From Shigella phage SFP17: a stretch of 51,296 bases of DNA. The notes under the pieces are model-generated. The model was not told the origin of the DNA, did no database searches, and was given only the letters and a program-made list of their open reading frames with translations. The DNA is taken from sequence record MN432485; one strand, given 5' to 3'. A program made the position numbers and the translations under genes. Each line of letters starts with the position of its first letter. The first letter of the stretch is position 1. This document shows positions 5,250 through 50,299 of the stretch, one piece after another.

Positions 5250-5492
5250 TCATTTGTAGTATTTGCGCGGCTCGCGAATTTTCGCCATAGCCTCTTTGAA
5301 ATCAATCTTTGTTGGTATTGCTGGTACGCGATGCATCTTGCGCGGTCGTTCATTGAGAAATGTCATTTTGTCGCCGCTGATAATGCTTATGTCAGCAATA
5401 TCAAAATATTTTGCTATCCTGGCTATGTCTTCAGAGATCCCGCACTCCTTTGCGTGATCCCATACGGCCTGCCTACCTTGTTCAACCTTCAT
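5250..5492 (-). CDS. hypothetical protein (80 aa)
   Basis: ATG at 5492 overlapping upstream stop (ATGA); track ORF extended to a TTG at 5513. Confidence 0.5.
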   Translation of the reverse strand: MKVEQGRQAVWDHAKECGISEDIARIAKYFDIADISIISGDKMTFLNERPRKMHRVPAIPTKIDFKEAMAKIREPRKYYK

Positions 5493-5661
5493 GCTTATAA
5501 TATGCCTCCGCAAATTCTAATGGGTAGTGACCATATGCAACGCGAAGTAGAATCATTGCCGCGCCCCAATCAAGCTGCATATTGTTTTTCGTTCCACCTT
5601 TTACCGCCTCGCGTGCGGTTTGTTGCGCCTGGTCAAATGCTTTCTTGCTGTATACTACCAT
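5482..5661 (-). CDS. hypothetical small protein (59 aa, below ORF-track cutoff)
   Basis: ATG with GAGGAA RBS 6 nt upstream; sits directly downstream of motif promoter 5694-5739. Confidence 0.4.
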   Translation of the reverse strand: MVVYSKKAFDQAQQTAREAVKGGTKNNMQLDWGAAMILLRVAYGHYPLEFAEAYYKHEG

Positions 5662-5693
5662 TTTTATTTCCTCATGTTTGTTTCGTTGAAATA

Positions 5694-5739
5694 ATTATGC
5701 CCGACACAAGGCCGGGCGTTTTAACAAAAAGTGCTATTT
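5694..5739 (-). promoter_or_regulatory. conserved-motif promoter (motif + 22 nt dyad spacer + CATAAT)
   Basis: AAATAGCACTTTTTGTTAAAAC then GCCCGG...CCGGGC then CATAAT; upstream of 5482-5661. Confidence 0.5.
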
Positions 5740-5973
5740 TGACGCGGATTCGTAAAACTCTTGCAAGTCTTTACCGATCTGCTCATGCCATTTTTCAAGC
5801 GGTAGTTTTCTTGTTTCCTCAAAACTCATATCAAGCGCGCTTGTAAACTCCCACGGATCACAACCTAATAGCGGTTTTATGAAATCGTTTTTATCAAGCG
5901 CCTCGCAAACCATAGCGCGAAATAACAACCATTCGCCAGTTTCATTTAAATAAACGCTTCTTTCTTTCTGCAT
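5734..5973 (-). CDS. hypothetical protein (79 aa)
   Basis: ATG at 5973 with GGAG RBS; begins 4 nt after Dam stop; track ORF extended to 6060. Confidence 0.5.
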   Translation of the reverse strand: MQKERSVYLNETGEWLLFRAMVCEALDKNDFIKPLLGCDPWEFTSALDMSFEETRKLPLEKWHEQIGKDLQEFYESASK

Positions 5974-5977
5974 GATA

Positions 5978-6679
5978 TTAACTCCGCTTTCTTGCCCGAC
6001 GCTCTGCCACTGACGGGCAAATGTCGCTGATTTTAACGTATCGAGTTTTCTGCTGCTCACCTTCTTTCAGTTCGCGCATGATGAAAATAACGCTGCCTTT
6101 GTTGTTTCCCTGCACTGGTTTACCTGTTAGCGCGGAAGTAAACGCCAGGCGTCCGGTGCGGGAATATTCTGTTCCATCCTCCTGGTAAACTTCGCCAGTG
6201 ATCCAGATTATTTCCGCTGCGCGCTGCTGCGCTTCATAAAACCATCCTGTTGATGTGTCGCAAGGTAACAGAATGTCGATCTGGTTGTTGTGCTCCATTT
6301 GCTCAATCGCCTTCTTAACAAATGGCGTAATATTGCTATACGGTGGATTAAGCCATATATGCTTATTACTACCCCACCAACGCTTTAAGCAATTTGTTTC
6401 CTTGCTGTAGAATTTTTCACATACAGCATTTTCTTTGCTTGCCGCCGCGTCGATGTCATAATCACCGTATTCGCTCTCCATCCATTCGACAAGCTCAGAC
6501 GGCGTAGACCACAAATCGCGCACAACGTCCGGCGTATTGCTTCCGTTATAGCGGTTGCCAGTCACTTTGAAATATTGATTTGGTTTAACAGCCTGGTAAT
6601 GACCACCAGTAGCAAGAGCATTGCCAATGAATGTTTCGCGTTCTATTTGTTCAAATGTCACTTCGGTTTCTTTGCTCAT
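5978..6679 (-). CDS. dam: DNA N6-adenine methyltransferase (Dam-like)
   Basis: NPPY catalytic motif (WLNPPYSN) in translation; RBS AGGT; motif promoter immediately upstream. Confidence 0.85.
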   Translation of the reverse strand: MSKETEVTFEQIERETFIGNALATGGHYQAVKPNQYFKVTGNRYNGSNTPDVVRDLWSTPSELVEWMESEYGDYDIDAAASKENAVCEKFYSKETNCLKRWWGSNKHIWLNPPYSNITPFVKKAIEQMEHNNQIDILLPCDTSTGWFYEAQQRAAEIIWITGEVYQEDGTEYSRTGRLAFTSALTGKPVQGNNKGSVIFIMRELKEGEQQKTRYVKISDICPSVAERRARKRS

Positions 6680-6713
6680 TTCTTAATTACCTGTTGCTTG
6701 TTGAACTGGTGTT

Positions 6714-6759
6714 ATTATGGCGCAATCCTTCGCGCCTGTTTTAACAAAAAGTGCTATTT
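6714..6759 (-). promoter_or_regulatory. conserved-motif promoter upstream of dam
   Basis: AAATAGCACTTTTTGTTAAAAC + 22 nt (GGCGCgaaggattGCGCC) + CATAAT. Confidence 0.5.
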
Positions 6760-7173
6760 CATCATGTATTCTACCGCGATCATGAATTGCTTATATCCGT
6801 ATGTTACGGCAGCGAATCCGCCAAGCTCACGCACACGGCGCAAGAAGTCTTTTTGCTCCTTGCTGACTGGTGAAGCCTTACCCTTGCCAGACTTATTGAC
6901 GCGTTTCATCTCAATAGCCGCGAATGGGTAACGGCCTTTTAATCCAATCAGGATGATAAAATCACTTACGCCCTTAACGAGTCCAGCTTGCTGATCCATC
7001 ATTGCGGTAGCGATACCCTTTTCTCCCTCATTTTTCGTATGCCAGGCAAGAAATTCAGGATGAGCATAAGTTAACCATTGAAACGCCCCAATCTGGTGTG
7101 ATTCCTCTTTTAGCGTATCCGTCGGATCTCTTTCGTAAAACTCCAGATAATCGCCTTTATCAGTCATTGCCAT
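6754..7173 (-). CDS. VRR-NUC-like PD-(D/E)xK nuclease (139 aa)
   Basis: GVSDFIILIG...AAIEMK pattern matches VRR-NUC core; ATG at 7173 with GAAGGA RBS, overlapping helicase stop. Confidence 0.65.
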   Translation of the reverse strand: MAMTDKGDYLEFYERDPTDTLKEESHQIGAFQWLTYAHPEFLAWHTKNEGEKGIATAMMDQQAGLVKGVSDFIILIGLKGRYPFAAIEMKRVNKSGKGKASPVSKEQKDFLRRVRELGGFAAVTYGYKQFMIAVEYMMK

Positions 7174-9229: not shown

Positions 9230-9243
9230 TTGGCGTGTATAAT
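9216..9243 (+). promoter_or_regulatory. sigma70-like promoter for regulator/primase operon
   Basis: TTGAGT - 16 nt - TATAAT within palindrome GTGTATAATACAC; divergent from helicase promoter. Confidence 0.4.
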
Positions 9244-38910: not shown

Positions 38911-39150
38911 TCAATACTTGTATTTTACTTTCTCTGGATTTGTTTTCATAGTGCTGTGAATCCTGCCACCGATTGATAAATAGTGACCGCGAACCTGCCA
39001 AACTTTCTGCTCTTCATCCCAAAACGCTAAAGCAAATTCACCCTTTTTTGACTTATAGCGAACGCCAACAGCCACCACGAAAGATACAGCAACAAAGCCG
39101 ATTAGAACACCAATGATTAAAGAAACCAAACCAATAATTACAGAACTCAT
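38911..39150 (-). CDS. small membrane protein (79 aa)
   Basis: N-terminal ~30 aa hydrophobic helix; RBS AAGGAAAA; terminator downstream. Confidence 0.5.
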   Translation of the reverse strand: MSSVIIGLVSLIIGVLIGFVAVSFVVAVGVRYKSKKGEFALAFWDEEQKVWQVRGHYLSIGGRIHSTMKTNPEKVKYKY

Positions 39151-39335
39151 GATATTTTCCTTACAAGATCTATTGAAAACTGGTGAGTGTCTTGATTAGC
39201 GCCGGACAACTCTTTTGCTCTTGCTGCTGCCTCAAGCTCTCCGCGCGCTTCAACCTCACATTCAAAAATTTGTTTGCATGAAGAGCAATTACGCCCCATT
39301 CGTCTGATTGTCAGCTTTACTTTGTACTTCATCAT
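39147..39335 (-). CDS. hypothetical protein (62 aa)
   Basis: ATGATG start overlapping end of upstream gene; weak RBS. Confidence 0.4.
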   Translation of the reverse strand: MMKYKVKLTIRRMGRNCSSCKQIFECEVEARGELEAAARAKELSGANQDTHQFSIDLVRKIS

Positions 39336-39522
39336 TAACAATCTCGCGCTTGATGCAATTGATATTGTGAATAGGATAAATGTAATCACCTATTCGAATA
39401 AATTTACCATCATCATCAATTTCATCCTCATTCACGGTAACAGAAAAGCTATTGCAAGCGTAACCATTTAATGGATTCATCACCATACTGTTAAACATGA
39501 AAGTTAATTTGTACTTTTCCAT
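39289..39522 (-). CDS. hypothetical protein (77 aa)
   Basis: ATG at 39522 with RBS AGGTGA immediately after terminator hairpin; track ORF extended through the hairpin. Confidence 0.5.
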   Translation of the reverse strand: MEKYKLTFMFNSMVMNPLNGYACNSFSVTVNEDEIDDDGKFIRIGDYIYPIHNINCIKREIVNDEVQSKADNQTNGA

Positions 39523-39534
39523 ATATTCACCTAT

Positions 39535-39576
39535 AAAAAAGGCGATACGTCTTACGGTAAAAACCTGCATATCGCC
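39535..39576 (-). terminator. hairpin + T-run (terminator-like)
   Basis: GGCGATA...TATCGCC stem with long loop, followed on minus strand by TTTTTTAT. Confidence 0.4.
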
Positions 39577-39668
39577 GTTGTTGCGTGGCAACCGCGCCAC
39601 CCGTTCGGCACTAACGCCGCTCTTATGTAAACGCCGAAGATGTTAACCAATCAGGAAATCTTTGTCAA

Positions 39669-39899
39669 TCATTCGCGGTCAAATGCGTTTCCCCATCGCC
39701 CACGAAGATAACCACACAACCAGATGAATTGGGTAATTGCAAGCATTGGCGCAACTGGCTGATAATGTTCGGCAATAATTCCCTTCATAACTTCATCAAC
39801 ATACTTTCCGCGCTTTTCAACATCCGCTTTCATTGCCTCGCCGTACTTCTTAGCCTGGCGTTTTGCAGCGTTGAATTGTGCCTCGTTCATTCCAAACAT
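39669..39899 (-). CDS. hypothetical protein (76 aa)
   Basis: ATG overlapping stop of upstream micro-ORF. Confidence 0.5.
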   Translation of the reverse strand: MFGMNEAQFNAAKRQAKKYGEAMKADVEKRGKYVDEVMKGIIAEHYQPVAPMLAITQFIWLCGYLRGRWGNAFDRE

Positions 39900-40027
39900 T
39901 ACAGACCTCTACCCTTCCACAAGTTGTACATTTCGAAATAGTGCATTGCAGTTTCAGTGTCGCCGCGTTCTAATGCTTCCTCTTGCTTCTGTGCGCACCA
40001 CTGCGACGGTTTTATGTAGTTATCCAT
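39899..40027 (-). CDS. hypothetical small protein (42 aa, below ORF-track cutoff)
   Basis: ATG with RBS AGGTGA; stop overlaps next ATG (TAATG). Confidence 0.35.
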   Translation of the reverse strand: MDNYIKPSQWCAQKQEEALERGDTETAMHYFEMYNLWKGRGL

Positions 40028-40042
40028 TGAATCACCTTACCT

Positions 40043-40087
40043 AAAAAATGCCTCGTCAAAATGCGTCCTGTTCGCTGTATGAGGCAT
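40043..40087 (-). terminator. hairpin + T-run (terminator-like)
   Basis: ATGCCTC...GAGGCAT stem with long loop, followed on minus strand by TTTTTT. Confidence 0.4.
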
Positions 40088-40097
40088 TCAATTTTAA

Positions 40098-40412
40098 TTA
40101 AAAATCGTCGAGCAACTCACGAAAGTTGTTAAGCGTTGCAACTTTAGCGCAATCCCACTCCGTCGATCCGGCTTCTTCCCACGGAGAACCAGGCCCGTGA
40201 TTTGTCATGTCGTCGATTAGTGATGAAATTTCATCAACAACAATCTCTTTCAAATGCTCTCGGTGCTCTATGTCTTCCACTGGCTCAAAAGCCTGAATTA
40301 CGCCACCCAAAACGCGTTGCTGTGCTTTCGCATCGTCGAGCGTATCACAAATTGCTCTGCGCTCCTGCTTGTTTTCGTTTGTCCCGATCTGGTAGTAGTG
40401 AATGTAAATCAT
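40098..40412 (-). CDS. hypothetical acidic protein (104 aa)
   Basis: RBS GGAGGA; ATGA overlap with upstream gene. Confidence 0.6.
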   Translation of the reverse strand: MIYIHYYQIGTNENKQERRAICDTLDDAKAQQRVLGGVIQAFEPVEDIEHREHLKEIVVDEISSLIDDMTNHGPGSPWEEAGSTEWDCAKVATLNNFRELLDDF

Positions 40413-40642
40413 AATCCAGCATCCTCCGCCGTCTCGTTTTTGCGCTTCCAGTATTCAATAGCCTTCTGAATGTATCCTGCCTCGTTACGCCATGCGGCAG
40501 TTTCTGCCGCTCGCGTTGGTGCTGGTGTAAGTTGACGGCAAATCTGATCCGCAACTTCACCCATAGCGCCTTCCATACCAAATCCAGAAATGTAGCTCAT
40601 CACTTGATATGCTTGCTTCTCTGAAAGGTTAATCGTGATCAT
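40409..40642 (-). CDS. hypothetical protein (77 aa)
   Basis: RBS GGAG; translationally coupled. Confidence 0.6.
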   Translation of the reverse strand: MITINLSEKQAYQVMSYISGFGMEGAMGEVADQICRQLTPAPTRAAETAAWRNEAGYIQKAIEYWKRKNETAEDAGL

Positions 40643-40896
40643 TCGATAATCTCCGCTTCATTCTCTGTAAGACTAAACCAATCTGTTTCTTTTACTTCGC
40701 CAAATTCGCCGTTGTGATTAATGCCAGCCATCGCCCACATCTCACCATCTTTGTAAAGCTCGACAACCATTTCCTTTCCGTTTTCGAATCCGGCCCACTC
40801 GCGCAATGTTGGAGATTCTGGATCTGGTCTGTAGTCAACATTGATTAACTTAACTCTAACATGACCGATAAAATTTTTATCTTTTAAGGTTGACAT
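40639..40896 (-). CDS. hypothetical protein (85 aa)
   Basis: RBS GAGGAAAG; motif promoter 40929-40973 upstream. Confidence 0.6.
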   Translation of the reverse strand: MSTLKDKNFIGHVRVKLINVDYRPDPESPTLREWAGFENGKEMVVELYKDGEMWAMAGINHNGEFGEVKETDWFSLTENEAEIIE

Positions 40897-40928
40897 TGCT
40901 CTTTCCTCTGTTTCGCTTCAATGAGGAC

Positions 40929-40973
40929 ACTTTAACAAATGCCCTCGCGGAAGTTTTAACAAAAAGTGCTATT
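40929..40973 (-). promoter_or_regulatory. conserved-motif promoter
   Basis: AATAGCACTTTTTGTTAAAAC + 22 nt + TAAAGT; upstream of 40639-40896. Confidence 0.5.
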
Positions 40974-41259
40974 AGCTCATGTAATAGATTTCATCGCGAA
41001 CAAAATCGTCAAAATCAGATTGCGTTAACGGTCGATCCTCTAATGCTGCCTGTTCAATCATTTCAACCAGGGCGCAATCCATATCAAGGTAATGCGCATC
41101 AAGATCATACCATGAAGCCATTTCACGCGCCCAGGATCGGCAATTCTTGAATCCGTAACGGCGGATACAGTTTGCTGTGTGAAATGAGTCATTCCAACCA
41201 CGCTCAAGCGCTGACTTTTCGAATGCGTTAATCAACATTTTACGATAGCTTTTAGCCAT
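40972..41259 (-). CDS. hypothetical protein (95 aa)
   Basis: Strong RBS AAGGAGGAAG. Confidence 0.6.
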   Translation of the reverse strand: MAKSYRKMLINAFEKSALERGWNDSFHTANCIRRYGFKNCRSWAREMASWYDLDAHYLDMDCALVEMIEQAALEDRPLTQSDFDDFVRDEIYYMS

Positions 41260-41302
41260 TTGCTTCCTCCTTTTAGCGCCACCGAAGCGGCGCGGTTAAA
41301 CA

Positions 41303-41479
41303 TTATTTCTTCCCGGTCAGAATGTAACGCTTGCCATTTTTAAATCCATCGCCGTAGCCGTAATATGCGCCAGCCAGGAAAATAATCATTCCGCCGATTG
41401 ACTCAACAATGCCGCTATACCCATAAGCCAAGTGGGAACCAGCGATAAGTGCAATAAAGGTGATAATTACTCTTTTCAT
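41303..41479 (-). CDS. small membrane protein (58 aa)
   Basis: ATG overlapping upstream stop (ATGA); hydrophobic Gly-rich helix IITFIALIAGS...GGMIIFLAGAYYGYG. Confidence 0.45.
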   Translation of the reverse strand: MKRVIITFIALIAGSHLAYGYSGIVESIGGMIIFLAGAYYGYGDGFKNGKRYILTGKK

Positions 41480-41739
41480 TCGTGATCCCATACGTCGCAC
41501 TTTTTGACAACCAACAAACGCAGTTTGTAAGGTCGGAACTTGTGCAACTTTTTAGCGTACTCACGCGCTTCACTGTAGCTATTGAACTCCATAGCCCAAA
41601 AGCCGAAAGCATCATCCGTCAGATATTCCCAATCACCACTAATAACTCGGCGGCGTTGCAGGTAATAAATCTTGCATTCTGTGCAAGCAACGATCCGGTA
41701 TTCAGGTTTAAAGATTCGTTTTAGTGCGTTAAAAACCAT
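41476..41739 (-). CDS. hypothetical protein (87 aa)
   Basis: RBS GAGGG. Confidence 0.55.
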   Translation of the reverse strand: MVFNALKRIFKPEYRIVACTECKIYYLQRRRVISGDWEYLTDDAFGFWAMEFNSYSEAREYAKKLHKFRPYKLRLLVVKKCDVWDHE

Positions 41740-41838
41740 AGTGCGGCCCTCACTGAATAAATAAATAAGAGAATCAAGAATAACACAATCATGATTTCAT
41801 GAAAATCAAACGGTGGCTTAGGATTGGTTGCGTTGTTG

Positions 41839-42243
41839 TTATTTCCCAGCATTTCGCGCAATCCCCTTGTACATGACGTAAAAATCATTACCAGGCTTTT
41901 TGAACTTGATCGCATTGCGCGCAAGTCGGCGCATACGTCGCGCATCGTATCGCGCTCGCTGAAATGGTGTTTTCATTGTCTTAACATGGCAGCCGCGATG
42001 ATCGCTGATTCGCTTAAGCTCAATCAAAACTCCTTGAGTTGCCACTACGCAATAATGATCAAAGCCAAGTCGTCGAGTAATGATATATCCATTCTTGATG
42101 CGTGGTCGGTTAAACTCTTTGAGCGATCCGATATAGCGATCTGAAGCCGTTACAATCTCACCTTTACGAATGCCGCATCGCTCATCATATACCCAGGTTA
42201 CAACAAATTTTGTGCCTACGCGGATTTTGTGAAGATCTAACAT
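41839..42243 (-). CDS. hypothetical basic protein (134 aa)
   Basis: ATG at 42243 with RBS GAGAGGA, downstream of the -10 of motif promoter 42274-42319; track start 42288 would lie upstream of that -10. Confidence 0.55.
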   Translation of the reverse strand: MLDLHKIRVGTKFVVTWVYDERCGIRKGEIVTASDRYIGSLKEFNRPRIKNGYIITRRLGFDHYCVVATQGVLIELKRISDHRGCHVKTMKTPFQRARYDARRMRRLARNAIKFKKPGNDFYVMYKGIARNAGK

Positions 42244-42273
42244 GTTCAAGTCCTCTCGTTGATTGGTGTTTAC

Positions 42274-42319
42274 ATTATAGCGAGGCATTGCGCCCCGCTT
42301 TTAGCAATTCGTGCTATTT
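42274..42319 (-). promoter_or_regulatory. conserved-motif promoter (GAATTG variant)
   Basis: AAATAGCACGAATTGCTAAAAG + 22 nt + TATAAT; upstream of 41839-42243. Confidence 0.5.
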
Positions 42320-42904
42320 GATCTTAATGTGTTTCCACTGGACCGTTTTGATGATCTCGTCAACAGTCTTTTCTGGATCGCCATCAATCATTGTGAAGTC
42401 GTAATGTTTTACGCGGTGATGGTATCCGCTCAGGTCAATATAGTTTCGTGAATCGCCATCAAACGTGAAGCCTTCGCGATGCAGTCGGCAAATGTGCACT
42501 TCATGTCCTGCCTTAACTAGCGGCTTGATTTCTTCAGGGAATCCGCCATCACTAATTACAACAGCTAAATCTCTGTACATCTCGTGTACTTGCTCAACCA
42601 TGCGATTTCCGAAATATTGCTCGCCAAAAGCTGGCTTCATAACTTCTTCGCTAATCCAGATCATGAACTGGCGAGGAGACTTTCCTTGCAAGATTGCTTG
42701 AGGCTTTTCTTTCTGCTCGCGGTCGTTATACAGATCAATGAACTCGTCATATCGGTAAACGCCAAGCATGGAGAATGCAATATCAAACATAGGCTGTTTA
42801 AACGACGCTTTAACCGCTGCGTAACGATGGCCCGTTAAGTATGCCGCAAGCGTATCCTTGCCAACTCCTGGCGGTCCGTTAAGGATGATAATGTCTCGTT
42901 TCAT
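42314..42904 (-). CDS. P-loop kinase (polynucleotide kinase-like or dNMP kinase-like)
   Basis: N-terminal Walker A ILNGPPGVGKDT right after Met; ATG at 42904 with RBS GGAGA. Confidence 0.7.
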   Translation of the reverse strand: MKRDIIILNGPPGVGKDTLAAYLTGHRYAAVKASFKQPMFDIAFSMLGVYRYDEFIDLYNDREQKEKPQAILQGKSPRQFMIWISEEVMKPAFGEQYFGNRMVEQVHEMYRDLAVVISDGGFPEEIKPLVKAGHEVHICRLHREGFTFDGDSRNYIDLSGYHHRVKHYDFTMIDGDPEKTVDEIIKTVQWKHIKIK

Positions 42905-42905
42905 A

Positions 42906-43043
42906 TTAGTTGTCTCCATATCTGCTTGAATGTTTACCTGGGCGCTTGCGCTTATTGCGATAGCGTTGATTCATCTCTTGGTGCTCGTGGTAGCTGTATC
43001 GCTTCTTTTTGGATACGATTTTTTCGAAGTTTCGCATCTTCAT
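42906..43043 (-). CDS. hypothetical small highly basic protein (45 aa, below ORF-track cutoff)
   Basis: ORF rich in K/R immediately upstream of kinase gene; weak RBS; speculative. Confidence 0.3.
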   Translation of the reverse strand: MKMRNFEKIVSKKKRYSYHEHQEMNQRYRNKRKRPGKHSSRYGDN

Positions 43044-43098
43044 GATCTCATGTTGTTATCTCAACATAGCGCACTGCATGAATGCGCTATAGCAAGAA

Positions 43099-43284
43099 TC
43101 ACCACTTAAAGCCGCTTTCATCCCGTACAATCTGGTAAAGCGCCACCCAAAACCACACAAACCAGAACATCAGAACAAGAGGCTGATCTTTATCCGTGCA
43201 ATCACACTCTTTAACCAATGCGCGGAAGATGAATAGTCCTGAAATATAAAAGAAAATCACCAAAAATACAAGTGCATATATCAT
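43099..43284 (-). CDS. small membrane protein (61 aa)
   Basis: RBS GGAGAA; two hydrophobic segments. Confidence 0.5.
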   Translation of the reverse strand: MIYALVFLVIFFYISGLFIFRALVKECDCTDKDQPLVLMFWFVWFWVALYQIVRDESGFKW

Positions 43285-43300
43285 TTGTTCTTCTCCTCTA

Positions 43301-43600
43301 TCACTTGCGCGCCATTTTGCGAAGCTGGCGACTTGTTAGTTTGCGCGGATCGACTACGTGACTGGCAACAATTCGGCCTCCTGCAACCAATACTTTATTC
43401 CAATGGTTATGGTTGCTTTGTTCTGTTGCATACCATCTGAACATGAAGAACGCAGGAGAGATTCTGCCACACAGAGAAGGTTTGCACTTCCCGCGAGCGT
43501 CGCGATACATCGCAATTGATGTGTGGCCTTGATGGTTTACGTGGTAAAGTTGAACTCCCATCTCGTTGGTGAATTTATAAATCGCATCACGAACTAACAT
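43301..43600 (-). CDS. hypothetical protein (99 aa)
   Basis: RBS AAGGA; motif promoter 43632-43677 upstream. Confidence 0.55.
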   Translation of the reverse strand: MLVRDAIYKFTNEMGVQLYHVNHQGHTSIAMYRDARGKCKPSLCGRISPAFFMFRWYATEQSNHNHWNKVLVAGGRIVASHVVDPRKLTSRQLRKMARK

Positions 43601-43631
43601 GATGTTTTCCTTTTTCGTTGTCGATGGGCTT

Positions 43632-43677
43632 ACTATACCGCAAGCCCAACAATCTGTTTTTGCAAAAAGTGCTATTT
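43632..43677 (-). promoter_or_regulatory. conserved-motif promoter
   Basis: AAATAGCACTTTTTGCAAAAAC + 22 nt + TATAGT; upstream of 43301-43600. Confidence 0.5.
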
Positions 43678-43833
43678 ACGGACACATAACGCCGTTACAT
43701 CTTTTCCACTATCTGACATGTGGAGAACAACTTGCTTTCGTGCTTCCTGACATCTTGATTCGCCGTGGAACTCATGCGATTCAATAGCGGCGGAGTTGTA
43801 ACTTGTGACAAAGATTAAAAGTAACCAGGTCAT
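43672..43833 (-). CDS. hypothetical small protein with N-terminal hydrophobic segment (53 aa)
   Basis: ATG at 43833 with strong RBS GGAGGG, ATGA overlap with phosphatase stop. Confidence 0.4.
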   Translation of the reverse strand: MTWLLLIFVTSYNSAAIESHEFHGESRCQEARKQVVLHMSDSGKDVTALCVRK

Positions 43834-44450
43834 TTCAAACCCTCCACGCCGCAACGCAAACATTTACCATCAACCACACTAAAACAGTGCTCGCCTTCGC
43901 ATTCGATTTTTGGCTTCAATTCATCCACGCCGTGCGATTGGATGTGATTATGTGGCTTGTCGTATTCCGTGACCTGATAGGTTGTGATTCCCAGGCTGCG
44001 GAAGTGCTTAACCACGTTCGGCGAATCATCAAAAGCACACACGATGTTTTCCAGTCCGATAGCTCGCAAGACTTCCTCTTTGATGATCGTGTCTTTTCGG
44101 TTATCTTCCTTGCGGCGCATGATTAACGCGTCGTACTTGATGCCGTTATAATTTAACCAGTCGCAGGTGTCAGCCATCACCTCATCGCTGCGTCCGGTCA
44201 GGATAACAATGGCAAATCCTGACATCCACAATCCGTTAACCACTGCAACCGTGCTCTTAATCGGCGAATCGCCAACAGCCGCTTTGTTGAACTCAGACCA
44301 GCTTTCTGTAAGGTGTAAATCTTCTGTCGGCAGCAGGTGCAAACGATGAGTCCCATCGGATAACGTGCCGTCAAGGTCAACGACAACAATCGGCTTGCTC
44401 GTGGAAAAATGGTATTTGCTTCCCCAAAGTTCAAATTCGTATTTTTTCAT
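43830..44450 (-). CDS. HAD-family phosphatase with C-terminal zinc ribbon (polynucleotide 3-phosphatase-like)
   Basis: HAD motif I VVVDLDGTLSD near N-terminus; C-terminal CEGEHC...CLRCG; ATG at 44450. Confidence 0.7.
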   Translation of the reverse strand: MKKYEFELWGSKYHFSTSKPIVVVDLDGTLSDGTHRLHLLPTEDLHLTESWSEFNKAAVGDSPIKSTVAVVNGLWMSGFAIVILTGRSDEVMADTCDWLNYNGIKYDALIMRRKEDNRKDTIIKEEVLRAIGLENIVCAFDDSPNVVKHFRSLGITTYQVTEYDKPHNHIQSHGVDELKPKIECEGEHCFSVVDGKCLRCGVEGLK

Positions 44451-44461
44451 TATCAAACCTA

Positions 44462-44683
44462 TCAATTAAAATGGATTTGCTTGTATTCGATTTCATCTGC
44501 CAGATCATTTAACTTATCCGCCAGCTTGCGCACCTGGTCAACGGTGAGTATCGACCTAAAATCCGGCCTGCGACCACCTTCAAGCGTGCCATCAATAAAC
44601 ACTCTATCGCCGAACTTATATACTTCAAGTGCATCGCCATGATTATCAATAAACTTGTGCTTAACGCGCTTATTTGTTTCCAT
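44462..44683 (-). CDS. hypothetical protein (73 aa)
   Basis: RBS GAGGTGA. Confidence 0.55.
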   Translation of the reverse strand: METNKRVKHKFIDNHGDALEVYKFGDRVFIDGTLEGGRRPDFRSILTVDQVRKLADKLNDLADEIEYKQIHFN

Positions 44684-44900
44684 CTTTCACCTCTTCAAAT
44701 TCAGCAATTACCATAGCGTGTGCCATAACCTTAGTGCCTTCACCACCGTTCAGGAACATGCGATGCCCTTTACTATTGCTCACGTAAAAGGATCCGGTTG
44801 ATGATTTCAGCTTTTGCGCCGTATAGATTTCGCCAGGCTTGAACATTCCAGCACAACCATAGTTAACGGAAACGCATTTCATCTTCTTGTTAATATACAT
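44670..44900 (-). CDS. hypothetical protein (76 aa)
   Basis: ATG at 44900 with RBS AAGGA downstream of motif promoter -10; track start 44963 lies inside the promoter. Confidence 0.5.
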   Translation of the reverse strand: MYINKKMKCVSVNYGCAGMFKPGEIYTAQKLKSSTGSFYVSNSKGHRMFLNGGEGTKVMAHAMVIAEFEEVKDGNK

Positions 44901-44930
44901 CGTTTTATATCCTTCGTTGAAAGTGAGGCC

Positions 44931-44975
44931 ATTATACCTGGCCCCACATTTGAGTTTTAACAATTCGTGCTATTT
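44931..44975 (-). promoter_or_regulatory. conserved-motif promoter (GAATTG variant)
   Basis: AAATAGCACGAATTGTTAAAAC + 21 nt + TATAAT; upstream of 44670-44900. Confidence 0.5.
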
Positions 44976-45879
44976 ACACTTTAACCTTCCACTTAACCAT
45001 CGTTCCGCGCTTGATGCTGATCTCTCCTGCAACAGTCCGGTTTTTCGCACTGCCATAATGAAGCAGAAGAATAACAACGTCATCATGAATCTCGATCGTC
45101 TTTGGCTTTGCCGTTAATTCAAACCATGTGCCATCCGCAATTTGGACGCCTTTTAGCGTGGCGGCAAGCGGCATGTCTTCAATTGCGCCATGAGTTACGA
45201 TTTCTTGATGGGCAAAGGCGCTCTTATCAATACGCCATCCTCCGGACGCCTTAATTGTTTGACTGTGAATCTGCTCACCAATACGTCGAGCGGCGTTATC
45301 TATCGCCTGCGCAAAATATGATTTACCTCCGCCAATTGGCGCATCTCCAAACAAGTGTTTCGTAATATCTTCCACGTAATACACTTTATCCTTTTCGTTG
45401 TGCGGATTGAATTTGTTGTGACCATTGACAAAGAAATCAACTTTCAACTCCGATTTCTGACCATCGCTATAAACGCCATTGTCGCGCGATGTGAAGCGAA
45501 TCGTTGAATTACCAACCGTGTAGAACGTGATCGGATACTTGATATTGTCCACACTTAAGCACCACAGCTTTTTGTAGTCGCAGGTTTTCATCTCGACCGT
45601 ATGAATCTCTGATCGCTCAGTTGAGCGCACTGGTAACACTTGGCCTTTATATGGCTTATAGTGCAAACATGTGTAGCCTGGCATTGCGTAGCCGTAGTCA
45701 TGTATTGAGTTGTAGTGCTTATTGTGCGCATCAATGAAGTGCTCAATCTCCATAGTTGAAACATCAGGCTTTCCGTATTCGTTAAACTTAGTGCATGTAT
45801 TTTTGTCGGAATACATGAAGTGACCAACGCCGCGAGATTGGAAGGTGATCGGGAATTTAATGTCAGCTAATTTTAACAT
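44974..45879 (-). CDS. hypothetical protein (301 aa) with N-terminal internal repeat
   Basis: RBS AGGAGAAAG; repeated IK(F/Y)PITF segments; His-rich; no family recognised. Confidence 0.7.
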   Translation of the reverse strand: MLKLADIKFPITFQSRGVGHFMYSDKNTCTKFNEYGKPDVSTMEIEHFIDAHNKHYNSIHDYGYAMPGYTCLHYKPYKGQVLPVRSTERSEIHTVEMKTCDYKKLWCLSVDNIKYPITFYTVGNSTIRFTSRDNGVYSDGQKSELKVDFFVNGHNKFNPHNEKDKVYYVEDITKHLFGDAPIGGGKSYFAQAIDNAARRIGEQIHSQTIKASGGWRIDKSAFAHQEIVTHGAIEDMPLAATLKGVQIADGTWFELTAKPKTIEIHDDVVILLLHYGSAKNRTVAGEISIKRGTMVKWKVKV

Positions 45880-45934
45880 GGTGCTTTCTCCTGATTGGTT
45901 TAACTGGGCGACGCCGTGCCGCCCTATGTGATTT

Positions 45935-45980
45935 ATTATGCCTGGTTATCGTTTTTGAGTTTTGACAAAAAGTGCTATTT
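45935..45980 (-). promoter_or_regulatory. conserved-motif promoter
   Basis: AAATAGCACTTTTTGTCAAAAC + 22 nt + CATAAT; upstream of 44974-45879. Confidence 0.5.
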
Positions 45981-46164
45981 AGAATTTTACCTCTTCCACA
46001 AGCTCAACCATTTTATAGCCCAGCCGATAAGAGTCACCGAACAACAAGATCCCCATAAATTCATCGTGGCTTATTGACTCTTTGCCAACCGTTCTAAGCT
46101 CGCCGTTGTGAATCACAGTATCGCCGATCTTGATTTCTGATTTATGGACTAATTTCGTCTTCAT
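45979..46164 (-). CDS. hypothetical protein (61 aa)
   Basis: RBS AGGTGA. Confidence 0.5.
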   Translation of the reverse strand: MKTKLVHKSEIKIGDTVIHNGELRTVGKESISHDEFMGILLFGDSYRLGYKMVELVEEVKF

Positions 46165-46179
46165 TTATTCACCTGCTAA

Positions 46180-46365
46180 TTAAAAGAAAGCTACATAGTT
46201 TGCAATGCCTTTGGCGTCGTCGTTTGGCATTGCTTTTACAGCCAGGTCATAACCTGCCTCTACCTTCTGCTTTGCTGTTTCTTCGTTGTATCCCCAGATG
46301 ACCAGGATTTTAACTACGTTTTCTTTGTTCAGGACTTTAAGGTCTTTGGTGATGCGACGTGCCAT
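46180..46365 (-). CDS. hypothetical protein (61 aa)
   Basis: RBS GAGGAAAA; motif promoter upstream. Confidence 0.5.
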   Translation of the reverse strand: MARRITKDLKVLNKENVVKILVIWGYNEETAKQKVEAGYDLAVKAMPNDDAKGIANYVAFF

Positions 46366-46397
46366 TTTGTTTTCCTCAATCTCGTTTCGATGAGGCT

Positions 46398-46443
46398 ATT
46401 ATGCCAGGATTTGCACCTGGCGTTTTAACAAAAAGTGCTATTT
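46398..46443 (-). promoter_or_regulatory. conserved-motif promoter
   Basis: AAATAGCACTTTTTGTTAAAAC + 22 nt (CCAGGtgcaaatCCTGG) + CATAAT; upstream of 46180-46365. Confidence 0.5.
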
Positions 46444-46698
46444 AATATCTGTTGTGACTTGTTGGTGTATTACGTTTTTGCCGTTGCGGTATGTGCTATC
46501 CGTTGCGCCTTTGCAATTTGTGTAATAGATCGCGCGACCGTTATCATAGAATCTGTATGCTGTGCATCCGTCAACAGTGAACAGGCGACCGACTTTGAAA
46601 TCTGACTCCACGCCTACGACAACCGTTGATTCTGACGCCTTTTCGCATCCGGTCAGCGTAGCGATTGCAATCAAAAGTCCAATTAATGCCTTATTCAT
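46438..46698 (-). CDS. lipoprotein (86 aa)
   Basis: Signal peptide with lipobox LTGC; RBS AGGTGGGGG. Confidence 0.6.
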   Translation of the reverse strand: MNKALIGLLIAIATLTGCEKASESTVVVGVESDFKVGRLFTVDGCTAYRFYDNGRAIYYTNCKGATDSTYRNGKNVIHQQVTTDIK

Positions 46699-47267
46699 TA
46701 TTCATCCCCCACCTTTACCATCTCGTTGAGCATTTCATTCATTCGCTCAAGTGCGATTGCCGCACCCTCCAGGCGCTCACCTTCCAGATCACTGATTCGC
46801 GGCTGTGTTTTCAGTAGTTGAGCAACAAACTTTGCTCGCCACTTGATTTCAAGTTTCGCTATATCATCTCCAGTCAGAACGCGAGGCTTGCTTTTGGCTT
46901 CAGTGAGCGTAAACACAAAGCCATCACCCTCATCAGTCACCTTTCGCTTAATGCTGATCACGCCTTTTTGCTTTACTTCTGGCACACGGTTGACCACCTG
47001 GCGCATGTACGATGCTGTAATTGCGTCGCCGTTCTCCACGTTAGCGCACAAGAAAAGTGCTGGCATGAATACATTATTACGCTCACCACTACCAATTGCC
47101 GCGCCCAGGTCGCGAAGCATATCGCAGAACTCACTACGCGACATGGTGCTAATATTTTCTTCATTCATGGCGTCTACTCCTTTTGTTGCGTTTAAACTGG
47201 ATGCATTATTGCCTTGCCCTTCCCACGTGTCAATGTATTCTTGTGTTTTAATAACAATTTTTGGCAT
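46698..47267 (-). CDS. hypothetical early protein (189 aa)
   Basis: First minus-strand gene after the 47.3-47.9 kb non-coding region; clean ORF. Confidence 0.6.
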   Translation of the reverse strand: MPKIVIKTQEYIDTWEGQGNNASSLNATKGVDAMNEENISTMSRSEFCDMLRDLGAAIGSGERNNVFMPALFLCANVENGDAITASYMRQVVNRVPEVKQKGVISIKRKVTDEGDGFVFTLTEAKSKPRVLTGDDIAKLEIKWRAKFVAQLLKTQPRISDLEGERLEGAAIALERMNEMLNEMVKVGDE

Positions 47268-47375
47268 GTGGCGCGTTTAAAGATAACAAAATGCTTCAGT
47301 TAAGTCATTGGTTTTTCTGTTAAAAGTGACCTTGTTGACTTGGTTGACGGAGGATTGCCCCATACCCATATATAT

Positions 47376-47545
47376 ACATATAAAAATCACCACACATCAC
47401 CATTGATTAAAAAATATACAATCACACATACATATCACCACAAACAATACCACTCCACCATATACCCATAGAACAAGCTCAACAGTAAATAACAAATATA
47501 AATACATATATAACTAACTTATTGATTTTATGGGTATATATATAA
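47376..47545. repeat. iteron/AT-rich repeat block, copy B
   Basis: TAAAAATCACC plus 4-5 ATCAC(C/A) iterons, then AACAAATATAAATACATATATAACTAACTTATTGATTTT; direct orientation relative to copy A; plus strand almost G-free over ~125 bp. Confidence 0.6.
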
Positions 47546-47768
47546 ATTTTACTTTGTTCTTTTTGTTGATGAACGCCGATTCTGTTATCTAAAAGTGCGG
47601 AGGCTTATTTGAGATAACATGGGGAACAGAAATAACAGATGCGCGCGCCAGGATTGCTGGAAAGGATGCAAGAGGGCCGTGTTTCTCTATCCCCTCCACA
47701 CAAAAAGTTAATCACTTGATTAAAATTGACCAAACTCAAAGTCTCACAATCCAGGTGATCGCGAATGA

Positions 47769-47813
47769 GTTATTCCTGTTATTCCTGATTAATGGAATAG
47801 ATGGAATAATAAC
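47769..47813. promoter_or_regulatory. operator-like repeat array (GTTATTCCT x2 followed by inverted GGAATAgatGGAATAATAAC)
   Basis: Four half-sites with dyad symmetry centred about 47790, 10-50 bp upstream of motif promoter 47822. Confidence 0.4.
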
Positions 47814-47821
47814 CAGTCAGC

Positions 47822-47867
47822 AAATAGCACTTTTTGTTAAAACGTGCCTGACTGGATTCGGCATAAT
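47822..47867 (+). promoter_or_regulatory. conserved-motif promoter
   Basis: AAATAGCACTTTTTGTTAAAAC + 22 nt + CATAAT; upstream of 47906-48178. Confidence 0.5.
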
Positions 47868-47905
47868 GCACACATCGAAACGAGATACCATTCAGGAGAT
47901 AGCAA

Positions 47906-48178
47906 ATGAACATCAGCAAAACCACTTTCAACTTTGCAAAGCGTCATGGTCTGGACCTGACTGTTGAGAATTTCGGCGATGTTCTGCAACTCTGCATTTG
48001 GGAAGCGGATAACGATTGCGAGTGGCTTTGCTCTTATCGTATCAACTACGATTGCTTAACCTGGCATGGCAACGTTTACCTGCCGCAAGAAGTGAAAGAG
48101 GAATTGCCAGCGACCATCAATAATGAAGTGTTTTTGCGCAAAGTCATGAAGTTTATTGCTGAGGAGATCAAGAAATGA
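47906..48178 (+). CDS. hypothetical protein (90 aa)
   Basis: RBS AGGAGA; motif promoter 47822-47867 upstream. Confidence 0.6.
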   Translation: MNISKTTFNFAKRHGLDLTVENFGDVLQLCIWEADNDCEWLCSYRINYDCLTWHGNVYLPQEVKEELPATINNEVFLRKVMKFIAEEIKK

Positions 48179-48420
48179 TTAATGAAGTGGATTTTGAACT
48201 TGCTGAGGCCCATGTAAGGGCCAAAAAGATGGGATTTCGGATCTTGACGCAAACAGTCGAGTTCCCGTCGATGCCGTTCGCATCATTCCATAAAGTGACG
48301 GTATTCAGTCGCAAACGCGAGTGTAATGCGCTAATACATGTTGGTGATGATAATCGCATGGCTAAATTCATTAACGAGTCCTGTGATGTTCTGAGGGCCG
48401 TTAAACACGATCAACAATGA
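48175..48420 (+). CDS. hypothetical protein (81 aa)
   Basis: ATGA overlap with upstream gene. Confidence 0.55.
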   Translation: MINEVDFELAEAHVRAKKMGFRILTQTVEFPSMPFASFHKVTVFSRKRECNALIHVGDDNRMAKFINESCDVLRAVKHDQQ

Positions 48421-48433
48421 AGGAGAAATAAAG

Positions 48434-48700
48434 ATGGCGCGAATCAATGCACCTATTCCAGTTAAGCGCAAAGCACGTTTGCTCAATAACGGATGTTACG
48501 CCCTGCGGCCTGCATTTAAGGATCGCACCTTTCCGGTTATCGTTAACGTATCTCACGTAAGCCGTAGCGGAAACCTGGTATTCGTTGAAGGCTCTGACCT
48601 GGCGGCGCTTGGATTCTATGGCGGCATATTCAATGAGCCGCTTGCATTTTGGGCCAAGCATCCATCAACCGGATTGCCAGAAATTGAACTTATCGACTAA
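48434..48700 (+). CDS. hypothetical protein (88 aa)
   Basis: RBS AAGGAGAA. Confidence 0.6.
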   Translation: MARINAPIPVKRKARLLNNGCYALRPAFKDRTFPVIVNVSHVSRSGNLVFVEGSDLAALGFYGGIFNEPLAFWAKHPSTGLPEIELID

Positions 48701-48744
48701 AAAGCACTTTTTGTTAAAACTCAATCCTGGCAATCCGATATATT
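48699..48744 (+). promoter_or_regulatory. conserved-motif promoter
   Basis: AAAAGCACTTTTTGTTAAAAC + 22 nt + TATATT; upstream of 48778-48930. Confidence 0.5.
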
Positions 48745-48777
48745 ACACACATCGACAACGAATGCGAGGATTTGAAA

Positions 48778-48930
48778 ATGGTTACTCTGATTACCTGGGA
48801 ACACGAAAACAGCCAGCCGGAAGTGCGCGAATTTGAAACTGTAGCGGCCTGCTACAACCTTGCGAAAAATGGCGGCTTCTATAAGGCGCAAATTGTTAAC
48901 GAATTTGGAGTTGTTGACTATGAGTTCTAA
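48778..48930 (+). CDS. hypothetical small protein (50 aa, below ORF-track cutoff)
   Basis: RBS GAGGA; downstream of motif promoter 48699-48744; stop overlaps next start. Confidence 0.45.
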   Translation: MVTLITWEHENSQPEVREFETVAACYNLAKNGGFYKAQIVNEFGVVDYEF

Positions 48931-49201
48931 GTTTTACAGTTATACCGATACCGTTGATTTTGATGGGATACAATTGCCCCTCCCTAACAACTACAGATAC
49001 ATAACTCGTGACCGTTTCGGTTTTATCCAGGGGTGGCGGAACAAACCAACACACACTGAGTTCGGTATGTCTGGAGGAGAAGAGTTGCCGATCACTTTTG
49101 GTCATCAAAGCGGTGAAAATCTTCCGGTTGTTGCGCGTAAGTATCGCAGACACAAGATTACAAGGCAGCTTATCTCTTTAACTGGATCTGTTGTTGAATA
49201 G
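48920..49201 (+). CDS. hypothetical protein (93 aa)
   Basis: ATG at 48920 with GGAG upstream; track ORF starts earlier at non-ATG. Confidence 0.55.
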   Translation: MSSKFYSYTDTVDFDGIQLPLPNNYRYITRDRFGFIQGWRNKPTHTEFGMSGGEELPITFGHQSGENLPVVARKYRRHKITRQLISLTGSVVE

Positions 49202-49241
49202 CACTTTTTGTTAAAACCGATGCGTCTCTGATTGGTATATT
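49197..49241 (+). promoter_or_regulatory. conserved-motif promoter
   Basis: AATAGCACTTTTTGTTAAAAC + 22 nt + TATATT; upstream of 49273-49467. Confidence 0.5.
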
Positions 49242-49272
49242 AAGCGCATCGACAACGAACGAGGATTTAAAA

Positions 49273-49467
49273 ATGGAAAATCAGGTTGACGTTAAAGTTG
49301 TACAGCGTGACACCACTCACGAGAAAGGAATCTTTAAGAAAGGCGCTATCATCACAATCGATCTTGATGATATGGTTGCGTATCACTCCGGCCTGACATG
49401 GAACGTTGTTAAACATGGCAATGATTTCAAACTGCGTGGATTCAATACTTTTATGGAGGTTGTGTAA
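49273..49467 (+). CDS. hypothetical protein (64 aa)
   Basis: RBS GAGGA; motif promoter upstream. Confidence 0.55.
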   Translation: MENQVDVKVVQRDTTHEKGIFKKGAIITIDLDDMVAYHSGLTWNVVKHGNDFKLRGFNTFMEVV

Positions 49468-49748
49468 TGGCATACAAAAACAGCGATTTTAAAAACTCAG
49501 CCGAAACAATCAAGACGCAACTCATTAAACAACGCGCTTATAGATTCTGGCTTGATTATCATGACCTAAGAAAAGAGATGGATAATCTTATCAAGACTGG
49601 TAACGCGTTCTGTTCTAACAGGACGGTTTGGCGCAATATGAATGCGCAGTACGGTTATGGAAAAATTCGTGTATTTGGTGAGGCTGTTGAAGCGTATGTA
49701 TTTAGCGCAACAAAAGCTGTGAGTTTTAATGTTGTTGGTATTAATTAG
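49467..49748 (+). CDS. hypothetical protein (93 aa)
   Basis: RBS GGAGG; start overlaps upstream stop. Confidence 0.55.
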   Translation: MAYKNSDFKNSAETIKTQLIKQRAYRFWLDYHDLRKEMDNLIKTGNAFCSNRTVWRNMNAQYGYGKIRVFGEAVEAYVFSATKAVSFNVVGIN

Positions 49749-49848
49749 ATGAAGCTAATAATATTCCATAATGCCTGGATGGTAGCTGTTGCAAATAATC
49801 ATTATGGCGGAGACGGCAAGCGAGCAAAGCGCCATAGCTATTTCAACT

Positions 49849-49892
49849 GATAGCACGAATTGCTAAACAATATTTCTCAAACCTGGTATAGT
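49849..49892 (+). promoter_or_regulatory. conserved-motif promoter (GAATTG variant)
   Basis: GATAGCACGAATTGCTAAAC + 21 nt + TATAGT; upstream of 49923-50150. Confidence 0.5.
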
Positions 49893-49922
49893 TATCACAC
49901 CAAATATAATGAGGATTGCATA

Positions 49923-50150
49923 ATGAAAGCTAAAGTTACTAACATCATGAACACTGTTGATGCACATCACCGCGTCGCCGTGAAAATGGATAAATCTTGT
50001 GGAATCAACCAGTTAACAATCACGAGTGGTAAAGGTGTGTTTGTTGTTGGCTCACATCCAGGTAGTAAAATCCGCAAATATACGCGCGAAGAATTGATTA
50101 AACTGCTGGAAGAAAACAGCATGTTTATTGAAAGCTGGAAGGCTGTATGA
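49923..50150 (+). CDS. hypothetical protein (75 aa)
   Basis: ATG at 49923 with RBS GAGGA downstream of motif promoter; terminator hairpin follows. Confidence 0.55.
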   Translation: MKAKVTNIMNTVDAHHRVAVKMDKSCGINQLTITSGKGVFVVGSHPGSKIRKYTREELIKLLEENSMFIESWKAV

Positions 50151-50159
50151 TTAATCAAT

Positions 50160-50183
50160 GGGAGGTTTCCGCCTCCCTTTAAA
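50160..50183 (+). terminator. intrinsic terminator
   Basis: GGGAGG-tttccg-CCTCCC followed by TTTAAAT. Confidence 0.5.
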
Positions 50184-50197
50184 TAAAGGTGATAATA

Positions 50198-50299
50198 ATG
50201 ATGAAATTTCTTGATATTTTATTTGTCGTGATGATTGGCCTTGTTGGTTTGCTTTGGCTTGAAATTCTTCTTACTGTTATTAAGGAGTTTATTAAATGA
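50198..50299 (+). CDS. hypothetical small hydrophobic peptide (33 aa, below ORF-track cutoff)
   Basis: RBS AAGGTGA; single predicted TM helix; stop overlaps next ATG. Confidence 0.3.
   Translation: MMKFLDILFVVMIGLVGLLWLEILLTVIKEFIK

Follow-up and report, generated by a model that had tools for sequence, protein, structure and literature searches.

Are the very short open reading frames (ORFs) that a cutoff of 60 amino acids removes from view genuine genes, or are they fortuitous open stretches of DNA? This question was raised by the DNA of Shigella phage SFP17 (sequence record MN432485; 51,296 nucleotides, the whole of which is referred to here as the window), in which a sequence-only reading had singled out five ORFs, coding for 33 to 59 amino acids, as plausible micro-genes. 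In our analysis these five ORFs, designated m1 through m5, are very probably real small protein-coding genes that reside in non-structural (early, DNA-metabolism) operons; four of them are firm and m5 is the probable one. All five were indeed present in the sequence with the ends and lengths that had been claimed for them, although the reading had left out their strands, which are included in the following list.

m1, 5482..5661, minus strand: 59 amino acids; predicted soluble helical protein of phrog_2180; Shine-Dalgarno (SD) sequence GAGGAA
m2, 39899..40027, minus strand: 42 amino acids; acidic, predicted helical protein of the T7 gp1.8 family (phrog_1312); SD AAGGTGA
m3, 42906..43037, minus strand: 43 amino acids (45 if the start is at 43043); strongly basic, T7 gp1.1-like
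m4, 48778..48930, plus strand: 50 amino acids; acidic, predicted ββαββ fold, Pfam DUF7170 (PF23776), phrog_4653; SD GAGGAT
m5, 50198..50299, plus strand: 33 amino acids (32 from 50201); predicted single-pass hydrophobic peptide; SD AAGGTGA

Location of the small ORFs in the genome

Three segments of the window were compared with complete genomes, and nucleotide identity of 90-97% over approximately the whole length was found to phages G29-2, aaroes, pSf-1, vojen, egaa, KarlJaspers, and JakobBernoulli (BASEL). Because these are complete Hanrivervirus genomes, the window is essentially the whole genome of a T1-like coliphage (Drexlerviridae, Tempevirinae, Hanrivervirus). Minus-strand genes run from about 16 kb to 47.3 kb, and the final 3.5 kb makes up a plus-strand block of small early genes. 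All five ORFs are on the strand that codes locally, and each fits almost exactly into a gap of 150-200 nucleotides (nt) between larger genes; every stop codon either overlaps the downstream start or lies next to it. Specifically, the stop of m1 falls within ATGAAGGTTGA, with an overlap of 11 nt with the downstream gene 5250-5492; m2 ends in a TAATG overlap with gene 39669-39899; m3 meets the deoxynucleoside monophosphate (dNMP) kinase gene 42314-42904 in a TAAtATG junction; m4 has an 11-nt overlap, ATGAGTTCTAA, with gene 48920-49201; and m5 has an ATGA overlap with gene 50296-50520, which codes for 74 amino acids. The good ribosome-binding sites (RBS) that had been ascribed to the ORFs were seen for m1, m2, m4, and m5, but not for m3 if it began at 43043, where only a GAG is found. 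The case for coding rests on the position of the ORFs in gaps of the coding strand and on conservation; in each case, the ATG found at the stop opens a conserved gene.

Conservation of the reading frames

Homologous DNA was collected from IMG/VR contigs and GenBank phages, amounting to 39 loci for m4 and m5, 15 for m2 and m3, 8 plus 4 for m1, and a few more. Alignment was performed at the nucleotide level, i.e., without regard to frame, and the Nei-Gojobori ratio of nonsynonymous to synonymous differences per site (pN/pS) as well as the number of stops were then obtained for all six frames. The values in the proposed frames of m1 to m4 were as follows.

m1: pN/pS 0.10; 5 sequences, 0 with an in-frame stop
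m2: pN/pS 0.23; 17 sequences, 1 with an in-frame stop
m3: pN/pS 0.31; 6 sequences, 0 with an in-frame stop
m4: pN/pS 0.09; 39 sequences, 0 with an in-frame stop
Five neighbouring accepted genes: pN/pS 0.03-0.27

The alternative frames of the same four ORFs mostly contained stops, as do those of m1, or had a pN/pS near or above 1, and distant homologues retained a protein identity of 42-68% where the DNA alignment was poor. This pattern points to a frame-specific purifying selection on m1 to m4 that is comparable to that on the neighbouring genes. The orthologues in close relatives match in position, length, and sequence, with an amino acid identity of 82-100% for m1 to m4 and approximately 65% for m5, and the Hanrivervirus orthologues differ from those of the window only as alleles. 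In at least one related GenBank genome, each of the five is annotated as a coding sequence for a hypothetical protein, although some relatives omit m3 or m5. The proposal that the 60-residue cutoff hides plausible genes was thus borne out for m1 to m4 by both selection and family relationships, with m5 as a probable addition, and the suggested comparison across related phages gave the frame-specific values listed above for m1 to m4 and a weaker one, approximately 0.65, for m5. Overall, the comparative data indicate conserved protein-coding genes in polycistronic units, whose stop-start junctions would allow translational coupling.

Families of m1 to m4

The m1 product matched the phrog_2180 profile with E=3.8e-13, its residues 1-46 falling on profile positions 6-52 of 56, and tblastn found homologues in 189 phage records. 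It is annotated in relatives as pSf-1 gp8, vojen_66, and G292_00065, and the gene order, consisting of Dam methylase, a protein of about 76 amino acids, m1, a protein of about 80 amino acids, and an SbcD-like phosphoesterase, is kept in Drexlerviridae of Hafnia, Vibrio, and Klebsiella. An AlphaFold2 (AF2) model of m1 contained three helices, with a predicted local distance difference test (pLDDT) score of 62; it had nearly no alignment behind it (the search for homologous proteins gave 1 cluster) and is unreliable. An exhaustive HMMER search with m1 returned 16 representatives, namely 8 small proteins and 8 long proteins that were each matched over several stretches; a Pfam scan of six of the eight long proteins identified every one of the six as a tetratricopeptide-repeat (TPR) protein. 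This is a weak hint that m1 may be a single TPR-like helical unit, and the likeness is only a weak lead since repeat matches inflate the score.

The m2 product matched phrog_1312 (E=2.5e-22; profile positions 1-41 of 46), the same profile that is matched by T7 gp1.8 (E=6.3e-15), and its family was found by tblastn in 640 phage records, many Autographiviridae among them. In the T7-like phage IME390, the family match is unannotated and sits between the nucleotide kinase gp1.7 and gp2, i.e., in the gp1.8 slot. Alignment of Drexlerviridae, Drulisvirus, Era103, IME390, and T7 sequences revealed that S8, W10, and C11 (S-x-W-C) and also Y30 are invariant. Besides the profile and the S-x-W-C motif, m2 has in common with T7 gp1.8 an aromatic-rich C-terminal helix that ends in W-K-x-R-G, an acidic isoelectric point (pI), and a similar size, since T7 gp1.8 is 48 amino acids long and m2 conforms to the family range of approximately 40-56; on the other hand, m2 carries an ERGD-containing insertion that is absent from T7 but present in many other Autographiviridae. 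The two also differ in their surroundings, as T7 gp1.8 comes after the nucleotide kinase gp1.7 and before gp2, whereas m2 comes after a 104-amino-acid gene of phrog_11192 and before a 76-amino-acid gene of phrog_303. Separated from the dNMP kinase gene by about 2.3 kb, m2 does not occupy the T7-type position, which is no requirement of phrog_1312. T7 gp1.8 is listed as non-essential (PMC9825161), and a search of the literature found no function for it. In relatives m2 is annotated as pSf1_0055, G292_00021, and bas06_0085. In one relative (L054, 4501-4545), a stop cuts m2 short after 14 codons, which may be natural or derived from the assembly.

For m3, the start codon had to be decided as well. 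The ATG at 43043 has only a GAG at 3 nt, and the same GAG is 9 nt away from the ATG at 43037; in relatives, AGGAG or GGGGGA precedes the second ATG, and the conserved protein starts with MRNFEK, i.e., at Met3. Most gene callers in the protein database also start the homologues at the 43-residue form. Because of this RBS spacing, the SD sequences of the relatives, the MRNFEK start, and the 43-residue gene calls, m3 probably starts at 43037, not at 43043, and was placed at 42906-43037. In this form it contains 14 lysine and arginine residues, and its pI is 10.6.

The m3 product matched phrog_8176 (E=1.2e-5), and against the Pfam family PF08200 (Phage_1_1) it scored 17.1 bits in the 45-residue form and 17.7 bits in the 43-residue form (E=0.005-0.008), which does not reach the gathering cutoff of 21 bits. 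In an alignment that included T7 gp1.1, the N-terminal MRNFE was invariant from T7 through the Klebsiella Drexlerviridae, and all ten aligned members, T7 gp1.1 among them, matched PF08200 at E<=0.1. In cross-comparison, the homologue from Klebsiella phage K50 matched T7's phrog_2490 with E=0.0024, and T7 gp1.1 matched m3's phrog_8176 with no better than E=0.073. By these scores, m3 is best described as gp1.1-like, a sub-threshold relative and not a demonstrated member of the family. It resembles T7 gp1.1 (42 amino acids) in the N-terminal MRNFEK, in length, in extreme basicity (pI 11.6 for T7 gp1.1), and in its early/DNA-metabolism location, but differs from it in the best PHROG (2490 for T7, 8176 for m3), in its score under the Pfam cutoff, and in the downstream partner, which is the dGTPase inhibitor gp1.2 in T7 and the dNMP kinase here. 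One paper (PMC7064336) presents T7 gp1.1 as a small protein whose function is not known, and no function for it was found in our literature search. Homologues of m3 were found by tblastn in 95 phage records, and the homologous-protein search gave 8 clusters. In Hanrivervirus, Warwickvirus, and Klebsiella phages, the dNMP kinase / P-loop NTPase gene invariably comes right after m3; m3 is annotated as pSf1_0046, G292_00012, and bas06_0075, and remains unannotated in several relatives. In relative L055 and in phage Fulano1, the C-terminus of m3 is altered and extended to 54 amino acids, which again may be natural or assembly-derived.

The GGAG of the dNMP kinase RBS (GGAGA) falls within the final Y-G-D/E codons of m3, and part of the conservation of the m3 C-terminus may be due to this. 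Within the same stretch (42902-42922, minus strand), the ATG at 42904, one base past the m3 stop, competes with the ATG at 42919 that is obtained by the longest-ORF rule. Since the Warwickvirus relatives lack the upstream ATG and the GGAGA lies within m3, the kinase gene most likely starts at 42904 rather than at 42919.

The m4 product scored 99 bits against PF23776 (gathering cutoff 27), its residues 1-50 covering positions 1-50 of the 52 in the profile; the domain was found in all 35 database homologues of m4, and by this match m4 is a full-length member of DUF7170. Homologues of m4 occur in 463 phage records; those of the T4-like Krischvirus are among them and have nrdG just downstream. In relatives m4 is annotated as pSf1_0028, G292_00082, and bas07_0062. 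In relative L045, m4 is frameshifted, either naturally or by assembly. At 48919-48930, the conserved Y-E-F-stop codons of m4 (TATGAGTTCTAA/TGA) embed the ATG of the downstream gene, and the same junction is found in Krischvirus GEC-3S (L084, 1642-1653), where the downstream nrdG product starts with MSSDTY, compared to MSSKFY in the phrog_1972 product of the window. The same 11-nt overlap junction has thus been reused before different genes. A literature search on DUF7170 found nothing.

An AF2 model of m4, built on an alignment of 33 sequences, displayed a ββαββ arrangement with a pLDDT of 94.5. A Foldseek search of the PDB with this model returned no significant match. The best template modelling (TM) score in the PDB was that of T4 Dmd (5HY3 chain B; TMq 0.70, TMt 0.63, root-mean-square deviation 2.2 Å, probability 0.77), but with a non-significant E of 1.8; among predicted viral structures, only uncharacterized proteins matched m4, more than 50 of them better than Dmd. 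Dmd, a 60-amino-acid antitoxin that blocks the RnlA/LsoA toxins, is similar to m4 in size and in ββαββ order and differs in genomic context. At the sequence level, hhalign gave a probability of 0.05% over two aligned columns, and Dmd was absent from a profile search of PDB sequences. Homology between m4 and Dmd was therefore rejected at the sequence level, and only the resemblance in fold remains. Among the five products, this modelled and non-significant likeness is the sole pointer to the host-takeover or anti-defence roles that the sequence-only reading had suggested for small phage proteins; it amounts to a hint, and direct support for such roles was not found.

The hydrophobic peptide m5

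The m5 peptide has a grand average of hydropathy (GRAVY) of 1.79 and a maximum 19-residue Kyte-Doolittle mean of 2.75. Its start is ambiguous between 50198 and 50201, and one or the other ATG is missing in relatives. A tblastn search of the phage collection with m5 retrieved nothing even at E<=0.1, probably because the query is short and hydrophobic and was masked by the low-complexity filter; m5 relatives were thus compared by DNA alignment and by synteny with the downstream 74-residue gene. In all ten relatives that have this gene, the open frame, the hydrophobic core, and the ATGA overlap were kept, and the insertions and deletions preserve the frame. The termini were kept as well, with K/D near the N-terminus and K-E-F-I-K at the C-terminus. 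Two relatives, in which the 74-residue gene is 84-85% identical, have a far more divergent m5 peptide, MIDKAIDFFFYSIVGAVGFLVTAAGLAIILAVIKGIMR, which is nonetheless built in the same way: a short N-terminus of polar residues leads into a hydrophobic helix (about 22-24 residues), and the peptide closes with K-x-x-x-K/R. In 22 of the 28 variable columns, the residues are hydrophobic or small throughout. Relative to most relatives, m5 of the window has a 12-nt in-frame deletion; since damhaus and aaroes (L081 and L082) share it, the short form is a natural allele. The ORF is annotated as pSf1_0023 and bas07_0056. On this comparative evidence, m5 is probably a gene.

Additional small ORFs and hairpins

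While the five ORFs of the sequence-only reading were borne out, its list had missed two further conserved ones, as follows.

41721..41852, minus strand: 43 amino acids; polar, Asn/Pro-rich N-terminus and predicted C-terminal transmembrane segment; fills a gap of the coding strand
49749..49850, plus strand: 33 amino acids; basic, phrog_32259 (E=2.4e-19); begins at the first base after the stop of the 93-amino-acid gene 49467-49748

The ORF at 41721-41852 was open in all eight relatives, with every other frame closed and a pN/pS of 0.43, and is annotated in KarlJaspers as bas06_0078. By eye, its product resembles T1 ST67 in having PP-x-F-x-E, a transmembrane segment, and then L-W-x-L. The ORF at 49749-49850 was open in all nine relatives, with a pN/pS of 0.18, and is annotated as bas07_0058. 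When the first 12 kb of T1 (the only part searched) were examined, no homologue of m1 to m5 was detectable.

Hairpins were also noticed by eye directly upstream of some of the small ORFs.

40046..40089, minus strand: hairpin and U6 tail (terminator-like), immediately before the m2 RBS; -12.9 kcal/mol, z=-1.2 (weak)
43059..43097, minus strand: long hairpin without a U-run, upstream of m3; -17.1 kcal/mol, z=-2.25
50160..50177, plus strand: terminator-like, GC-rich hairpin (GGGAGGU/GCCUCCC, then UUUAAAU), immediately before the m5 RBS; -12.6 kcal/mol, z=-2.1

The stem of the m5 hairpin is kept in relatives, with a compensatory GGCGGC/GCCGCC in L010, and the 3' arm of the m3 hairpin is partly conserved in Warwickvirus tiwna. 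All three are reminiscent of the rho-independent terminators that have been described between genes of T1-like phages, and m2, m3, and m5 may each constitute the leading cistron behind a partial terminator. A scan of 39000-51296 with promoter and terminator consensus sequences returned fewer sites than shuffled sequence did, and missed the hairpins seen by eye.

Weighing of alternative explanations

A number of observations speak against the coding interpretation. When first-ATG ORFs of 30-59 amino acids were counted on both strands of the whole genome, 166 were observed, compared to 206 in shuffled sequence; those with an SD sequence numbered 22, compared to 27; and those that additionally had an out-of-frame ATG at the stop numbered 7, compared to 6.0±2.8. 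The seven consist of m1, m2, m4, m5, and three ORFs inside large genes. The combination of ATG, SD, and stop-adjacent ATG is thus not above chance genome-wide, and does not by itself prove coding; the claim of translational coupling holds insofar as stop and start overlap or abut in all five, but the signature of RBS plus coupling carries no weight of its own beyond chance. The disrupted copies in single relatives (m2 truncated, m4 frameshifted, m3 altered at its C-terminus) imply that the genes are dispensable in some backgrounds, or that the records contain errors. The literature yielded no ribosome profiling, proteomics, or genetics for m1 to m5, and no expression data for Hanrivervirus. 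The remaining points concern m5, which is weakly constrained, with an antisense frame that is open in 8 of 10 relatives, as is to be expected opposite U-rich hydrophobic codons. The m5 allele of the window has no PHROG or Pfam match, the allele of pSf-1 matching phrog_33409 at E=0.018 only, and the ORF is unannotated in G29-2, damhaus, and aaroes. Moreover, codon 22 (50261-50263) specifies Glu in the middle of the hydrophobic helix in the window, in place of Ala in damhaus and aaroes (GCA->GAA), and among the alleles examined this Glu22 occurs in the window only; m5 is possibly slightly impaired in this genome.

Three other explanations were considered against this background. Some of the ORFs, chiefly m5 and perhaps m3, could be chance open frames in regulatory spacers that hold hairpins or terminators and the next RBS, without any functional peptide. 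The shuffled counts, the hairpins before m2, m3, and m5, and the features of m5 just described agree with such an origin, as does the fact that a frame of 33 codons is open by chance fairly often; but the low frame-specific pN/pS of m1 to m4 and their significant family matches argue against it, and the m5 frame has survived both a 12-nt deletion and strong divergence of the peptide, with mostly hydrophobic or small replacements and polar ends that are kept. We consider this explanation very unlikely. It could also be that the ORFs are translated only as leaders that deliver ribosomes to the downstream start, in which case the peptide sequence would be irrelevant. All five stop-start junctions are suited to this, the dNMP kinase gene has its SD within the final codons of m3, the start codon of the next gene is embedded in the Y-E-F-stop codons of m4 in both the window and Krischvirus GEC-3S, and m5 is weakly constrained. 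Against it, purifying selection at the amino acid level extends along the whole length of m1 to m4, m4 has a confidently predicted compact fold, and the m2 and m4 homologues of T7-like, Drulisvirus, Era103, and T4-like phages are followed by genes of quite other kinds. As a general account, we hold this to be quite unlikely; given the constraint on the amino acids, and given that m2 and m4 lie before unrelated genes elsewhere, a leader role is unlikely for m1 to m4, while for m5 it is possible. The occurrence of m2 and m4 homologues in unrelated contexts, in T7-like and T4-like phages, rather argues that the peptide itself would be the selected unit. Lastly, the real gene at the m1 locus could be an ORF on the opposite strand (5331-5846, plus, 171 amino acids), which is present in the ORF track, starts with ATG, and is three times as long as m1, and m1 would then be no gene. 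However, this frame has a pN/pS of 1.38, versus 0.10 for m1, and of five close relatives, one has it interrupted; the ORF opposes the local coding strand, and it is antisense to three conserved minus-strand genes (phrog_2817, phrog_2180, and phrog_2676) that are annotated in relatives. It was rejected as spurious, and the explanation built upon it is almost certainly wrong.

Possible roles and significance

In the preferred reading, that of m1 to m5 as small protein-coding genes, each ORF would be translated from a polycistronic mRNA, its stop overlapping or abutting the next start. With 33-59 amino acids, the products are too small for enzymes, and, judging also from their folds and compositions, most likely would be stoichiometric binding modules instead. 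The m1 product would be a three-helix, TPR-like protein, perhaps protein-binding, in a module with the Dam methylase and the phosphoesterase, and m2, acidic and helical, would be a member of the T7 gp1.8 family, perhaps also protein-binding. The highly basic, gp1.1-like m3 peptide would probably bind nucleic acid, its last codons carrying the RBS of the dNMP kinase gene. The m4 product is predicted to be a compact acidic ββαββ domain, a type of fold used by small inhibitor proteins of phages, and may bind protein, while m5 would be a single-pass peptide sitting in the membrane. PADLOC gave no match for any of the five, which is only a weak check, as its library models the proteins of defence systems. 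A bolder proposal is that m4 is a Dmd- or p56-style stoichiometric inhibitor of a host nuclease, toxin, or other defence component, travelling as a portable cassette with its TATGAGTTCTAA/TGA junction among T1-like, T4-like (Krischvirus), and other phages, and that the micro-proteins shared between T1-like phages and T7 (gp1.1-like and gp1.8-like) form a common toolkit for host takeover; this we regard as unlikely.

The finding itself is correct but ordinary, and adds little to the biology, since related phages already carry annotations of these genes as hypothetical, and existing families cover four of the five. Nonetheless, an ORF cutoff of 60 amino acids conceals at least seven conserved genes in a 51-kb phage, i.e., about 8% of the gene count. 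The methodological lesson is that the visible cues, namely ATG, SD, and the overlap of stop and start, are insufficient, and that position in a gap of the coding strand and comparative constraint are needed. For screens of the targets of small phage proteins, the analysis offers T7 gp1.8-like and gp1.1-like peptides that are conserved in Drexlerviridae, the latter always coupled to the dNMP kinase gene, and DUF7170, which is spread across phage families and has a confidently predicted fold resembling those of small inhibitors.

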